Source: an uncultured Gemmatimonadales bacterium (GTDB lineage Bacteria > Gemmatimonadota > Gemmatimonadetes > Gemmatimonadales > Gemmatimonadaceae). Taken from it: 64,000 nt of DNA. Made by a program: the position numbers and the translations under genes. Location: positions 2,176,001 through 2,240,000 of the forward strand of contig CAWKMU010000003.1 in the NCBI GenBank assembly GCA_963850905.1, in the 5' to 3' direction. The notes under the pieces are model-generated. The model was not told the DNA's origin and did not search any database. It worked only from the letters and a program-made list of their open reading frames with translations. Positions 13,875-20,293 of the stretch are shown one piece after another (position 1 is the first letter of the stretch; the number at the start of each line of letters is the position of its first letter).

Positions 13875-13911
13875 CGATCGTGAGGGCCTCTCTTCAGTGC
13901 TCGGAACCGTC

Positions 13912-14628
13912 ATGGATATGCAGATCGCAGCTCGCCTTTCCTCCAGTCCCTGGACCGCAATTCCGCTCCTCTTCGGCGCGGGGGTGCTGACGAGCCTCAC
14001 GCCGTGCATCTACCCCATGATCCCGATCACGGCAGCGGTGGTGGGAGGGAAGGCCGTCGGTCGCGGGGACGGCCGGTCCTGGTTTCGGCCGTTGGCGCTC
14101 AGTGTGACCTACGCGCTCGGACTCGCGGCGGTCTACGCCTCGCTGGGTGTCCTCGCCGGGCTGACGGGCACCTTGTTTGGGTCGGTCAGTTCGAACCCGT
14201 GGCTGTATTTCGCGATGGCCAACCTGCTGCTCCTTTTCAGCTTCGCCATGCTCGACGTCATTCCTGTCCGCGTGCCTGCGGCACTTCTCGGCCGGCTAAG
14301 CCAGGCGGGCAAGGGTGGTGACTTCGCGGGCGCTCTGGTCATGGGAGCGGCGTCGGGTCTCGTGGCGGCGCCGTGCTCCGCGCCGGTCATGGCGGCGGTG
14401 CTGACGTGGGTGGGCACGACGCGAAGCGCGGTCCTAGGTTTCGTGTACTTGTTCGTGTTCTCCCTCGGCATGTGCACGTTTCTGATCATCGCGGGCATCT
14501 CGAGCAGCGCGCTCGCTCGCCTGCCCCGAGCCGGGGAGTGGATGGTCTGGATCAAGCGTGGGTTCGCGCTCGTGATGCTCGGGATGGCGGAATACTACCT
14601 CATCCTCACAGGACAACAGCTGATTTGA
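13912..14628 (+). CDS. ccdA: CcdA/DsbD-beta family transmembrane electron transporter
   Basis: Two catalytic Pro-Cys motifs, SLTPCIYPMIP and AAPCSAPV; LPRAGEWMVWIK. Confidence 0.88.
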   Translation: MDMQIAARLSSSPWTAIPLLFGAGVLTSLTPCIYPMIPITAAVVGGKAVGRGDGRSWFRPLALSVTYALGLAAVYASLGVLAGLTGTLFGSVSSNPWLYFAMANLLLLFSFAMLDVIPVRVPAALLGRLSQAGKGGDFAGALVMGAASGLVAAPCSAPVMAAVLTWVGTTRSAVLGFVYLFVFSLGMCTFLIIAGISSSALARLPRAGEWMVWIKRGFALVMLGMAEYYLILTGQQLI

Positions 14629-14633
14629 CACGT

Positions 14634-15146
14634 ATGACGATCCCCTTGTTTCGCATCGCAGTGGCTTTTCTCGTCCCAACGGCAGTCGTCGCGATGACCC
14701 CGTCGCGAGCGCGTGCGCAGGACGGAGGCATTGAGGTTGGGGCGCATGCACCCTCGGCTGCTGTCCGTACACTGGATGGCAAGACCGTCGACCTGTCGCA
14801 GCTCATCGGCCCGGGACCGGCAGTGATCGAGTTCTGGGCGGCGTGGTGTCCGAACTGCAAGGAGCTGGAGCCAGCGCTAACGGCGGCCCAGAGCAAATAT
14901 GGGAGCCAGGTCCGGTTCGTGACTGTCGCGGTGGCGATCAACGAGTCCATGGAGCGCGTCCAGAAGCACGTCGCGGCCCACAAGATCCCGGGAACCGTCG
15001 TGTACGACGCTCAAGGCAATGCCGCGGGCGCGTACGACGCGCCCGCCACGTCCTACGTCGTCGTCATCGACCGGACAGGCCGTGTGGCCTATACGGGAGT
15101 CGGCGGCACGCAGGACGTGGACGCGGCGATAAAAAAGGTGCTATGA
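14634..15146 (+). CDS. Exported TlpA/ResA-like thioredoxin (disulfide reductase)
   Basis: Signal peptide ending ARA-Q; EFWAAWCPNCKEL (CxxC); VVIDRTG. Confidence 0.88.
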   Translation: MTIPLFRIAVAFLVPTAVVAMTPSRARAQDGGIEVGAHAPSAAVRTLDGKTVDLSQLIGPGPAVIEFWAAWCPNCKELEPALTAAQSKYGSQVRFVTVAVAINESMERVQKHVAAHKIPGTVVYDAQGNAAGAYDAPATSYVVVIDRTGRVAYTGVGGTQDVDAAIKKVL

Positions 15147-15737
15147 CGTCGGCGCTGGCGTGACCTTGCTCACCGCGTCCGCCAGATCCGTGTAGGCCGC
15201 CGGCGACAGCACGTTGAATGGCTTCACGACGTGCGAGATCCGGCCGTCGGGTCCCACGACGAACAGGGACCGATTGTCCAGGTTGTTCTTGACGTCGAAT
15301 GCGCCGTAGGTCTTCCCGATCTTGCCAGCGCTGTCGCTCGCAAACACTACGGGGAAGTCGGCCTCACGCGCCCAGTTGGCCAGCGTGGTGTCCGGATCCA
15401 CGCTGATGCCAATGACTGTAACGTTACGTCCGTTGTGGAACAGCGTCGCGTACTGATCACGGTACGCGTCCATTTGGATCGTTCAGCCCTTGGTCCTGGC
15501 CTTGAAGAAGAACGCCAGCACGACTGTGCGGCCCTTATAGTCGCTGAGTCGAACGGGTGCCTTGAGCAGCCCGTACCGGGTGGCTCCGGGCAGCGTAAAG
15601 TCGGGCGCGACCGCGCCGACGCCAGGGCCCGCGGTATCTGCTTGCGCTTCCGCTGGCGAAGCCGACGCGACCATCGCGAGGGTGACACCCCCCGCCGCGA
15701 GGCTGACAACCCCCGCCCATCTCGACCAGGTCTTCAT
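15141..15737 (-). CDS. Exported BCP/PrxQ-type peroxiredoxin with in-frame UGA (probable selenocysteine)
   Basis: ORFs 15483..15737 and 15141..15473 share a frame and are joined by TGA-ACG-ATC-CAA. This gives APDFTL...VVLAFFFKARTKG-U-TIQMDAYRD...VIGISVD...RSLFVVGPDG, with UGA at the peroxidatic TxxC position. Confidence 0.85.
15447..15468 (-). promoter_or_regulatory. Putative bacterial SECIS hairpin
   Basis: On the mRNA, UGA is followed by 14 nt and then CGCGUAC-CGUGAUCA-GUACGCG. The 7-bp stem is perfect, the loop starts 21 nt after UGA and G is the second loop base. Confidence 0.7.
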
Positions 15738-15801: not shown

Positions 15802-16793
15802 TCAACGCGTCGCTGGCCGTCCGAGCCGCGAGCGGCGTTTCGGTGAGCCTCCGGTCCCGTCGTCCCGTGCAGTAGTTGGCTGAGCCACCGCCGTGGAACG
15901 AGCGGCCGTGGGTTCATCGAGGAAACCGCCGAACGCACGGGCAGCCGCGCTCTCGCCGGCGGCGGTCAGGGAAAGCCGCATGAGCGGTCGTCGAATGGCG
16001 AGGCCTGTCACGTCGACCACCTGAAGTCGCCCGAGCGCGAGGGCATCCGCGGCCGCCGACCGTGACACGACCGCAAAGCCGAGTCCTGCCGCCACGAGCT
16101 GGATGATGGCTTCAGCGGTGTCGACTTCGAGCCGCCGTTTCGGGACCACCCCAACCTGGCGCAGGCCGCGCATCACCGTGCTGTAAGTTCCCGAGCCCGG
16201 CTCACGGGTCACGAGTAACTCGTGGACGAGCGCAGTCGGTGCGATGGGTGCGCGTCGGCACAACGGGTGCGTCGGCGCCGCTACTACGACCAGTCTCGTC
16301 CTCACCCCATACCGCCGAGCCCAGGCGCGGGTCCTCCACTGGCGTCTCGACGAGCGCCACGTCGACTTCCCGCTCGGCGAGGAGCCGCGCGATCGCGCGC
16401 GACGGCGCTGACGTGAGTCGCAGCTCGACACCCGGGTAGCGGCTGTGGAAGCGCTGCGAGCAGCGGTGGCAGCAGATAGGTCGCGATCGTCGGACTCCCG
16501 CCGACGCGCAGCGTGCCCTGCGTCAGTCCGGCCAGCGCATCCAGATCCTCCTCTGCCGCCCGCGCCTCGGCCATGATGTTGCGGGCGTGTGCCAGCAGGG
16601 CCTGCCCGGCCTCGGTGAGACGCACGCCCGAGGGTGTCCGCTCCAGCAGCGTCGCACCGATCTGTCGCTCCAGCTCGCGCACGGACCGCGACACCGACGG
16701 TTGCGACACGCCGAGGTCGGCTGCGGCCTGCGTGATGTTTTTGCGGTGCGCGATGGCGAGGAAAACGCGAATGAGCCGTAGATTGAATGGCAT
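15802..16793 (-). CDS. LysR-family regulator, CysL/YeiE-like (frameshifted, probably sequence error)
   Basis: HTH NITQAAADLGVSQPSVSRSVRELE; effector domain with REPGSGT. Split across ORFs 16302..16823 and 15802..16431. Confidence 0.85.
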
Positions 16794-16808
16794 AACAGGA
16801 TAGTTATG
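16791..16808. promoter_or_regulatory. Putative LysR operator overlapping the lysR start codon
   Basis: Inverted repeat CATAAC-AGGATA-GTTATG in an AT-rich divergent intergenic region. The spacing is one base longer than the canonical T-N11-A. Confidence 0.5.
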
Positions 16809-16950
16809 GGGAGATATCCACATCTGCTATTGGTGTAATATCTGCGATGAGTATAACATTGTGAAGCTACGTCGCGCACCTGGCCGCGAGGGCTATGGTG
16901 CCGATCGGGCCGCCCCGCTCGGGGCCTCGCTCATGTGAGTGTCGCCGCCC

Positions 16951-19900
16951 ATGTGGATCGTTCGTCTCGCTCTGCGTCAGCCGTACACGGTCGCCGTCAT
17001 GTCGCTCGTGATCCTGCTCATGGGCTGGCTCGCCATGCGCAGGATGCCGGTCGACATCTTCCCGGTCATCGACATTCCCGTCGTCGCGGTCGTCTGGAAC
17101 TACAACGGCTTCTCGGCGCAGGACATGGAGAGCCGCATTGTGCTCCTCAGCGAGCGCAACCTGTCGGCGACCGTCAACGGCATCTCCCGGATCGAATCCG
17201 AGTCGATCCCCGGTGTCGGGCTTGATCAAGGTCTTCTTCCAGCCGGGCGTCGACATCGGGAACGCGATCGCGCAGATCACCTCGTCCTCTCAGACCGCGT
17301 TGCGCGCCATGCCGCCCGGGGTCACGCCGCCCTACGTCGTCCAGTCCAACGCGTCCAGCGTACCAGTGGCTCAGCTGACGCTGACGTCGCAGACCATGCC
17401 CGAGCAGAACATCTCCGACTACGGGCAGAACTTCATCCGTCTCCAGCTCTTCACCATCCCGGGGCTCGCGACGCCGTCTCCATACGGCGGCAAGCTGCGC
17501 GAGATCACCGTCGATGTGGACCCCAAGGCGCTGGCGGGCAAGGGATTGTCGGCCGAGGATGTGCTCAGCGCGCTCCTGTCGTCCAACCTGCTGATCCCTG
17601 CCGGCACGGCGCGCATCGGCGATCGTGACTACAACGTGGCGATGAACTCGAGCCCATCGAATGTCGCCGATTTCAACAACATCCCGGTCAAGGTGGTCAA
17701 CGGTGCGCCGGTGCTGATCGGCGACGTGGCGACCGTGCGCGATGGATTCGCCGAGCAGGAGAACATCGTCCGGATCGACGGGCGACGGGCGGCGTACTTG
17801 ACGATTCTCAAGAAGGCCGATGCCTCGACGCTGGCGGTCGTCGATGCCGCCAAGGCGATGCTGCCACGCATCCGCGCGGTCGCCCCCGCAGGGGCTCAGG
17901 TGCGGCTCGACTTCGATCAATCGGTCTTCGTGCGTGCCGCCGTTTCGAGTGTCGTGCGCGAGGCGATCATCGCCGCGGTCCTCGTCTCGCTCATGATCCT
18001 GGTCTTCGTCGGGAGCTGGCGAAGCGTACTCATCGCCGTGACGTCGATCCCGCTCTCGATCGCCATGGCGGTCATCGTGCTCCACGCCACCGCCAACGGC
18101 TTCAACGTCATGACCCTCGGTGGGCTGTCGCTGTCGATCGGATTGCTCGTCGACAACGCGATCGTCACCGTCGAGAACGTGCACCGCAACCTGAGTCTCG
18201 GGAAACCGCTGACGGTCGCGATTCTCGATGCCGCGGCCCAGATCTCGACTCCGCTCATCGTCGCGACGCTCGCGATCTGTATTGTTTTCTTCCCCGTCGT
18301 GCTGCTCGTGGGACCCGCGCGATTCCTGTTCATCCCGATGGCGATCGCGGTCGTAAGCGCCGTCGCCGCGTCCTGGCTGCTGTCGCGAACCCTCGTCAAG
18401 ACACTCTCGCGTATGTTGCTCGGCGCCGAGGTGCACCATCAGACCGTCCCTGACGTGCAAAAGGGTGATGTCACGTCTGCTGGCATGCAGCCGCCCGCCC
18501 TCCTCCACAGCGAACCCGCCCCCCGCCGCGAGGGCGCAATCGCGCGCGCAGGGCGGCGATTCAACGAGGTGCGCGACCGGTGGTTCGCGCAATTCCAGGA
18601 GGCCTACGGCCGGTTCGTGGAGCTCCTCATCGTGCACCGCAGCTACGTGCTGACGGTCGTGGGGCTGCTTCATCGTCGCCACGCTGCTGCTCCCGAGCAT
18701 TACCGGGACGGACTTCTTCCCGTCGACCGACGCCGGGATGATGAAGATCCATTTCCGTGCACCATCGGGGACCCGTATCGAGCAGACGGAGCAGCTTCGT
18801 TGCGCGGGCCGAGCAGGTCATTCGCGGCATCGTGCCGCCGGCGGAGCTGCAAACGATCAACTCGACAATCGGGCGTCCCGCAGCCTCTCAACATGGCGTT
18901 CGTCCCGACTGATAACGTGAGTGAGATGGACGCCGAGATCCTCGTTGCGCTGAATCCGGGTCACGCGCCGACCGAGGGGTACGTCGATCGGATCCGGAAT
19001 GCGCTGCAGACGGGATTTCCGGGATCGGCGGTCTACTTCCAAACAGCCGACATCGTCGGGCAGGTGCTCAACTTCGGACTGTCGGCACCGATCGACGTGC
19101 AGATCATGGACCAAAATCTGGATCAGGCGTACGCGACGGCGCGGACGCTGCGCGATGCGATCAGCGAGGTGCCCGGGGCAACCGACGTGTCACGATCAAG
19201 CAGACTCTCGATTATCCGACGCTGTTCGTGAACGTCGACCGGGAGCGCGCCGCGCAGCTCGGCCTCAGCCAGCGTGACGTAGCGAACAGCATGCTGGTGT
19301 CGCTCTCCTCGAGCGCCGTCGTCAACCCCGACCTACTACATCAATCCCGAAAACCACGTCAACTATCTCGTCGCCGTCGAGGTTCCATTGCCACAGATGA
19401 CGTCGACGCGCGACCTGATGAACACGCCGGTGTCCCGCTTCGGGCTGTCGCTCGACCAGCACGTTATGCCTGCGCGCCGCACGACCGATCCGGTGCCGCA
19501 CGCACCGGTTCAGACGCTGGACAATGTCGCTCAAGTCACGCCGACGGCGGTTCCGGACGTCATCAACCACTACACGGTGGCGCGGGTGCTGGACGTGACG
19601 GCGAGCGTGACGGGTCGCGACCTGGGGTCTGTGGTTGCCGGGATCGATCAAAGGATTGCAGCGCTCGGTAAACTCCCAACCGGGATGTACATCACCGTTC
19701 GGGGACAGGGCGAAGTCATGGACGAGGCGTTCTCGAGTCTTGGCCTCGGGTTCGTCGTGGCCATTCTCCTCGTGTACTTCCTGATGGTCGTCCTGTTTCA
19801 ATCCTGGATCGATCCGCTGATCATCATGGCGGCAATCCCCGGCGCCATCGTCGGCATTTTGTGGATCCTCGTGCTGACGCACACGACGATCAACGTCGTC

Positions 19901-20293
19901 TCGCTCATGGGATCGATCATGGCCGTGGGGATCGGCGTATCCAACTCGATCTTGGTCGTGACATTCGCCCATGATATTCGCGTCGAGCGCCGGATGTCCG
20001 CGGCCGCTGCGGCCGTGGAGGCTGGCAAGACGCGACTCCGACCGGTGTTGATGACGGCACTGGCGATGATCCTCGGGATGGTCCCGACCGCGATCGGACT
20101 GGGTGAAGGCAGCAGTCAGAACGCCCCACTCGGTATAGCCGTGATCGGTGGCTTGTTCATGGCGACCCTCTTCACACTCTGCTTTGTCCCGGTGGTGTAT
20201 TCACTCGTACGGCGTCCCGTTCCGGAGCGATTCTCGCTCGAGGAACGTTTCAAGGCCGAAGAGCAAGGGTTGACCTATGATGAGGGTTACTGA
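16951..20293 (+). CDS. RND efflux permease (AcrB/AcrD/AcrF superfamily), several frameshifts
   Basis: MWIVRLALRQPYT, VDIFPVIDIPVV, GLLVDNAIVTVEN, RLRPVLMTALAMILGMVP. Frame changes near 17220, 18670, 18800, 18870, 19190 and 19330. Confidence 0.88.

Follow-up and report, generated by a model that had tools for sequence, protein, structure and literature searches.

A probable selenocysteine peroxiredoxin with a predicted signal peptide and a replaced motif proline in Gemmatimonadota

The peroxiredoxin locus and its interrupted frame

The window, by which we mean the whole stretch of 64,000 nucleotides of an uncultured Gemmatimonadales bacterium that was analysed, carries on its minus strand a peroxiredoxin gene of 198 codons in one frame, broken only by a single in-frame TGA (Table 1). 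The open reading frames on either side of this codon, of 84 and 110 amino acids, share that frame, and the translation across it runs FFFKARTKG, then TGA, then TIQMDAYRD. Behind the TGA lies a hairpin with the stem CGCGUAC/GUACGCG. On the opposite strand are ccdA, the start codon of which is uncertain, and tlpA, which is convergent with the peroxiredoxin gene, their stop codons overlapping by 6 bp. The original prediction, made from the letters of the sequence, had joined two separately listed frames into one cysteine-free product with an AxA-type signal peptide, a conserved peroxiredoxin Arg, a Phe in place of the motif Pro, and a perfect 7-bp hairpin 14 nt downstream of the TGA. The sequence features behind this were found at the locus: the sequence agrees with one frame split by the TGA, the translated frame contains no Cys codon, the N-terminal stretch ends in AEA-Q, residue 78 is Phe, Arg156 is present and invariant among the homologues, and the hairpin lies at the predicted distance.

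Table 1. Features of the peroxiredoxin locus, in window positions
Feature	Position	Strand	Basis
Peroxiredoxin gene (Prx), TGA almost certainly read as Sec (U85)	15141..15737	-	Sequence; Pfam; AlphaFold2; Prx fold
In-frame TGA, predicted Sec85 at the peroxidatic position	15483..15485	-	Homologues; contigs; alignment with the AhpE catalytic Cys
Predicted bacterial SECIS, 7-bp stem, 8-nt loop CGUGAUCA	15447..15468	-	Folding; covariation; consensus constraints
Predicted signal peptide, residues 1-31, cleavage AEA-Q	15645..15737	-	Sequence; conservation; low pLDDT
Phe78, at the place of the canonical Pro of PxxxTxxC	15504..15506	-	Sequence
Thr82 of the TxxU motif	15492..15494	-	Thr 98, Ser 6, Gly 1 of 105 Sec forms
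Arg156, conserved peroxiredoxin Arg	15270..15272	-	Invariant in 74/74 proteins; aligned with AhpE Arg
TlpA/ResA-like thioredoxin, WCPNC, signal peptide; candidate reductant	14634..15146	+	Profile matches; synteny
CcdA (DsbD transmembrane domain), TPCIYP and APCSAP cysteines; candidate electron conduit	13897..14628	+	Pfam DsbD_TM, 171 bits

Checking the codon itself mattered, because the assembly contains other mid-gene TGAs as well as frameshifts, which affect two genes next to the locus, LysR and RND. The LysR regulator gene (window 15802-16823, minus strand) is split over overlapping frames, which suggests indel errors or a pseudogene, and an RND-type transporter gene (window 16939-20293, plus strand; labelled from its translations) is split likewise, with the same possible explanations. 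TGAs in the middle of genes, outside Cys-like motifs and in a coding-like context, occur elsewhere in the genome and are likely nonsense changes or miscalls. An example is the TGA at G000:C3:1984812 (minus strand), which falls in a motif like that of phosphate-binding proteins, at a place where we take Arg to be usual. At the peroxiredoxin locus, contigs (not raw reads) from three of four public runs span the TGA with zero differing letters, at low depth, the best run being possibly the source sample, and at this level the codon withstood the check for a miscall.

Decoding of the in-frame TGA

Among 110 homologous loci (L025-L134; 30 from genomes and the best 80 of 329 contig matches, the window locus and four duplicates included), the codon at this site is TGA in 106 and TGC in 4, and in 105 of the 106 Sec genes no Cys follows downstream of the site. 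The expected alternation with Cys codons is found in this set, with close homologues mostly in the TGA form and followed by a conserved and covarying hairpin. Judged by those homologous records that carry a name, the family belongs to Gemmatimonadota. A TGA-containing match is present in 47 of 60 relatives (34 were checked at the site; the count is 46 of 59 when the unpublished genome G016 is excluded), while 10 relatives have only Cys forms and 3 have no match. All 47 also have a match for selA or selD, and the eight genomes that have neither gene (G010, G014, G015, G019, G026, G027, G030 and G031), which are 68-100% complete with three under 90%, and which include kin and are not independent, contain Cys forms only. 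Five relatives with sel genes gave no Sec form with the window query, G012, G023 and G040 having no match, and G043 and G053 only a distant Cys paralogue. Phylum-wide, a match was obtained in 256 of 301 genomes, and 136 of the 150 matches listed contain TGA; no match was seen in 24 genomes of five distant families. A site check in 20 stretches, picked mostly as Cys forms, yielded 14 TGA genes and 13 Cys genes. Several loci hold more than one copy: in L160, L162, L163 and L168 a Cys paralogue is followed in tandem by a Sec paralogue that keeps Pro, L170 and L174 carry two Sec copies each, and L169 carries two Cys copies.

In the available part of a published consensus (PMC13188914), a bacterial SECIS element has a loop of 3-9 nt, a stem of 4-16 bp, a distance of 16-37 nt from the UGA, a G in the first two loop positions and a folding energy of at most -7.5 kcal/mol. 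The window hairpin, compared by hand, agrees with the four constraints of this consensus (8 nt, 7 bp, C-G-U, a loop from 21 nt after the UGA, and -9.4 kcal/mol for the 22-nt core). Taken alone, the hairpin in the window sequence is not beyond chance. Its stability was rejected as stand-alone evidence (folding z-scores of -0.14 to -1.48), and a genome-wide SECIS pattern scan was discarded as too unspecific, since 707 of 47,568 open-frame-flanked TGAs have a loosely SECIS-like hairpin. The hairpin stands above chance because it is conserved and covaries across homologues. In a set of 106 Sec genes, reached by removing two truncated and three duplicate loci and adding six others, all seven pairs are formed in 104, the codons at +6, +7, +8 and +11 are identical in all 106, and the outer pair is C-G in 41, U-A in 39, G-C in 23, U-G in 1 and mismatched in 2. 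The CGT codon that is invariant in the SECIS accounts for 100 of 1061 CGN codons elsewhere in the same genes, and the full seven pairs and CGT are both absent from all 10 close Cys forms. For 80 distinct sequences, 99.6% of the cells are paired (3-54% in slid controls) and 40 two-sided changes were counted, compared to 10.8 after shuffling (0 of 500 shuffles), with cell counts that are inflated by kin; as six of the seven stem pairs are constant, the covariation comes from a single pair. A metagenome sample has a Watson-Crick combination at this outer pair in 61 of 78. The codon for Gln88 (window 15476-15474, minus strand) is CAA in 90 of the 106 Sec genes, compared to 20 of 237 Gln codons elsewhere in Sec genes and 0 of 10 at this site in close Cys forms; this bias points to an RNA-level constraint between the UGA and the hairpin, one that selD does not share. 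An A-rich spacer (A at +9) was considered as a SECIS feature of the lineage and rejected, as among selD genes it occurs in only 3 of 10 with Sec and 2 of 10 with Cys.

The genes for Sec insertion were found in the window genome (4.49 Mb, 82% complete), namely selA (E 5e-139), selB (333 bits, cut-off 242), tRNA-Sec (69 bits against 47) and selD, which carries its own TGA in a CAG-U-ASK motif. The gene for tRNA-Sec lies about 100 bp downstream of the Sec-form selD (G000:C3:3126708-3127833), with selA and selB elsewhere. A selA match is present in 50 of the 60 relatives. The model for the alpha subunit of formate dehydrogenase (Sec) matches 14 of 60 genomes, mostly with one TGA, and gave no match in the 82% complete window genome. 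Six genomes (G006, G007, G008, G011, G020 and G055) have a Cys-type SelD and no formate dehydrogenase match, yet carry the TGA form of the peroxiredoxin. Two further candidates were seen in the window genome. A peroxiredoxin-like gene (L137:1498-2040; G000:C3, from 1623792, plus strand) with GDW-TGA-PFC, a UxxC motif, is a second probable selenoprotein gene, its best NCBIfam matches being PrxQ and SelL-related models, all below cut-off. A thioredoxin-like gene at G000:C3:763039 (minus strand) with FWTYG-TGA-INC, also UxxC, followed by 448 open codons, probably encodes a third.

From these comparisons, the TGA is almost certainly decoded as Sec, with SelB, bound to the in-frame SECIS, predicted to bring Sec-tRNA to UGA85. 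A true stop or a miscall, which would make the locus a pseudogene or a pair of genes for small proteins of 84 and 110 amino acids, is very improbable. Such a reading can draw on the two halves being stored as separate proteins in public collections, on an ATG four codons after the TGA in 105 of 106 Sec genes, and on the frameshifts and other mid-gene TGAs in the same assembly; however, more than 100 diverse genes have TGA at this site and never TAA or TAG, the TGA form tracks the sel genes, the hairpin covaries, the codon is unchanged in the contigs of three runs, and splitting the gene would cost the protein its sole catalytic residue. That UGA is read as Cys or Trp instead of Sec is scarcely credible. 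Four database entries have W (P0002 and P0040) or L (P0008 and P0044) at the Sec site, with Phe or Tyr at -7, and are probably gene-calling artefacts, the W entries being most simply explained by the genetic code used by the gene caller. Against a Cys or Trp reading, tRNA-Sec is the only tRNA with a UCA anticodon at the default threshold, and many of the same genes end on TGA as their terminal stop.

Active site and the motif proline

The protein matches Pfam AhpC-TSA (PF00578) with 94 bits (cut-off 26), whereas no NCBIfam model reaches its cut-off for it. The BCP/PrxQ models stay below theirs (PRK09437, 60 against 140; NF053650, 48 against 260), and in a PDB sequence search AhpE (48.9 bits) and BCP (45.5 bits) tie, with similar TM-scores, so that the BCP/PrxQ assignment of the original prediction is not demonstrated. 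The AlphaFold2 model, built from a 74-row alignment of mostly Cys relatives, has a pLDDT of 88.9, and the structural matches listed are all peroxiredoxins, the TM-score on the AhpE chain being 0.85. In the sequence alignment with AhpE the TGA falls on the catalytic Cys, which agrees with the earlier placement of the stop on the peroxidatic Cys. Of the canonical PxxxT/SxxC motif and its distal Arg, the window protein has the Thr, in the TxxU sequence T82-K-G-U85, and the Arg, and lacks the Pro seven residues before the catalytic residue. In addition, position 88 is Gln, whereas Glu is the residue there in distant Cys forms and in the alignment with AhpE. Because of the missing motif Pro and of Gln88 in place of Glu, canonical peroxidase chemistry is not guaranteed. 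A selenolate held by Thr82 and Arg156 would reduce H2O2 or organic peroxides and thereby be converted to selenenic acid, and the fold and the retained residues make such peroxidase activity quite likely. For BCP, a kcat/Km level of about 1e5 per M per s is given in the available part of PMC3322552.

A genuine selenoprotein with another main job, such as selenol-thiol exchange, periplasmic Cys repair or redox sensing, would fit the aromatic residue seven positions before the catalytic residue, which is thioredoxin-like (the neighbouring TlpA has Trp there), and also the basic KAR/RAR loop and Gln88, which are unlike classical BCP. We consider this improbable, since Thr82 and Arg156 are kept, the top structural matches listed are all peroxiredoxins, and close Cys orthologues with a canonical PxxxTxxC motif stand in for the Sec form in genomes without sel genes.

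In the available parts of two papers, the motif Pro is called absolutely conserved (PMC3322552) or highly conserved (PMC13188914). In an alignment of 264 rows, Pro occupies position -7 in 144 of the 145 Cys forms, some of which are protein-database rows that carry no DNA-level check, and the 119 Sec forms divide into Phe (82), Tyr (29), Pro (6), Ile (1) and Val (1). The single Cys form with Phe at this position is P0083. A metagenome sample collected with the SECIS pattern, and thus blind to position -7, gave Phe in 63, Tyr in 41, Pro in 12 and Ile in 1 of 119 readable matches, with 2 frameshifted. Cys almost requires Pro, whereas Sec tolerates Pro but mostly takes an aromatic residue.

A single Sec clade was rejected (AU p 0.006) with a quick tree of 123 rows in which both sites were masked. 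The tree of 119 de-duplicated rows calls for 14 Sec/Cys changes, of which well-supported branches force at least 9; its bootstrap was still unsettled, at a correlation of 0.954. It contains 9 independent pairs, in about 8 of which Pro goes with Cys, and never the reverse (p about 0.008). With the 92 DNA-verified rows, 5 independent pairs were obtained, about 4 pointing the same way and none the opposite way (p 0.125), and the first trees gave only 3 independent pairs. The changes are given without a direction (Sec gain or loss), because the base of the tree is not fixed and the outgroup branches are long. What appears to be new here is the coupling of Pro loss to Sec across repeated Sec/Cys switches. 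The pattern is observed, and as its cause we infer that selenium would free the active site from the motif Pro, with Phe or Tyr then being preferred, and that lineages without the Sec machinery would use Cys and Pro together.

Export, recycling and relation to known peroxiredoxins

The predicted signal peptide has neither a lipobox Cys nor a twin Arg. In a set of 74 full-length proteins, Ala31 and Gln32 are each conserved to 90% or more, the pLDDT is low over residues 1-30 of the AlphaFold2 model, and a hydrophobicity screen with a low threshold and no control was positive for 125 of 125 proteins. The general secretion translocon would export the peroxiredoxin, and cleavage at AEA-Q would release a soluble protein into the periplasm, a location that we consider very probable. 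Taken jointly, Sec decoding, export with cleavage, and peroxide reduction by the selenolate are likely.

Recycling in trans is to be expected because the protein has no resolving Cys, and the neighbouring genes provide candidates for it. In the flanks of 100 Sec loci (at least 900 nt downstream, flanks of 1.5-4 kb, duplicates included), tlpA was found in 67 and ccdA in 62, in the convergent orientation, whereas among 20 Cys loci the numbers were 5 and 4. Four Cys loci show a second arrangement, in which a distant paralogue lies co-directionally just after tlpA, in three of them also with ccdA. The TlpA protein scores 63 bits on the ResA model, compared to a cut-off of 170, and reaches the cut-off of no specific model. 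The ccdA-tlpA pair has other known jobs, for example in cytochrome maturation. The idea that the upstream LysR is a selenium regulator was rejected: against NF040786, which has a cut-off of 250, it reaches 89 and 53 bits and does no better than with general LysR models, and the window locus is the only one at which it adjoins the peroxiredoxin gene.

With the single Sec as its partner, the CxxC of TlpA would form and resolve a mixed Se-S bond, and CcdA would pass electrons from thioredoxin in the cytoplasm on to TlpA. The model for this is the ScsB-TlpA-PprX chain of Caulobacter, in which, according to the available part of the report, ScsB reduces TlpA and TlpA reduces the periplasmic PprX (PMC3322552). 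From the gene order and this analogy, recycling by TlpA and CcdA appears somewhat favoured. The alternative, which concerns the recycling step only, is that the Sec peroxidase depends on a small thiol or on some other reductant of the periplasm and that ccdA-tlpA is inherited gene order. In favour of this alternative, ccdA-tlpA is convergent with the peroxiredoxin gene, on the opposite strand and not operonic, the fetched flanks lack tlpA at 33 of the 100 Sec loci and at 15 of the 20 Cys loci, and TlpA stays below every specific model cut-off; the adjacency, however, is kept across three families and Longimicrobiales records, the second orientation recurs with a distant Cys paralogue, and TlpA does reduce PprX in Caulobacter (PMC3322552), which leaves another reductant as a possible but less favoured explanation.

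Sec peroxiredoxins with a TxxU motif are a catalogued family, as seen in the available parts of four sources (PMC9312934, PMC13188914, PMC1088965, PMC2398784), and the window protein has PF00578, TxxU and UGA with SECIS in common with the entry "Prx, TxxU" (COG1225/PF00578). The supplement of the 2005 selenoproteome from the Sargasso Sea (PMC1088965) already includes an orthologue, AACY01587908, among its Sec peroxiredoxins, so that calling the gene hidden, as had been done, was an overstatement. This entry shares FFF at the motif, YRDQY and an 18-nt SECIS core with the window gene, and differs in that its translation starts at an internal Met and has no signal peptide. Three GOS reads of the 2008 dataset (PMC2398784) belong to the clade. 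In the available parts of these sources (PMC1088965, PMC2398784), the other marine entries keep Pro, and nothing is said on export, the lost Pro or Gemmatimonadota. In open-licence PMC and bioRxiv texts, no description of the clade, its export or the Pro change was found; supplements of recent surveys may list it. Against PrxU, the window protein scores 68 bits on NF040737 (cut-off 270). PrxU of Eubacterium acidaminophilum, a strict anaerobe, is said to have Sec at the peroxidatic site (reportedly the work of Sohling et al., 2001), and PrxU is cytoplasmic. Mycobacterial AhpE (1-Cys; PDB 1xvw, 1xxu) resembles the window protein in fold (TM 0.83-0.86 on the target) and in its single catalytic residue, and differs in sequence (about 30% identity), in having no signal peptide and in using Cys with Pro. 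PprX of Caulobacter crescentus, an exported BCP/PrxQ-like protein, receives electrons from TlpA and the DsbD family, and the window protein is predicted to resemble it in export and electron supply. PprX has Cys in a canonical PxxxTxxC motif, a resolving Cys and ScsB, where the window has Sec without a further Cys, Phe at the place of Pro, and CcdA (PMC3322552, available part). The window protein is a variant of a known family, and its predicted export, single Sec, Sec-linked Pro loss and ccdA-tlpA link recommend it as a system for testing. It represents neither a new recoding mechanism nor a new protein family.

The 60 relatives are presumably aerobes. The presence of selA in 50 of 60 of them contrasts with the statement, in the available part of a 2026 review, that aerobic bacteria rarely keep selenoproteins. 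A tentative idea is that the family represents a natural Sec/Cys swap, in which Pro may be needed only for sulfur chemistry and Sec prefers an aromatic residue, and that the periplasmic peroxidase, recycled by TlpA and CcdA, could be among the main reasons for which most Gemmatimonadota keep the Sec machinery. Retention for this purpose is supported because formate dehydrogenase is found in only 14 of 60 genomes and six genomes with Cys-type SelD still have the TGA form, a support drawn from SelD and formate dehydrogenase. Since Cys forms hold on to Pro and most Sec forms have another residue, over many independent switches, a comparison of the four Sec/Cys and Pro/Phe variants would directly show the role of Pro and what selenium makes unnecessary. 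The peroxiredoxin gene, which has a match in 256 of 301 genomes of a common soil phylum, is stored as two fragments in public collections and is covered by none of the NCBIfam models. It suggests a selenium-based peroxide defence in the cell envelope.
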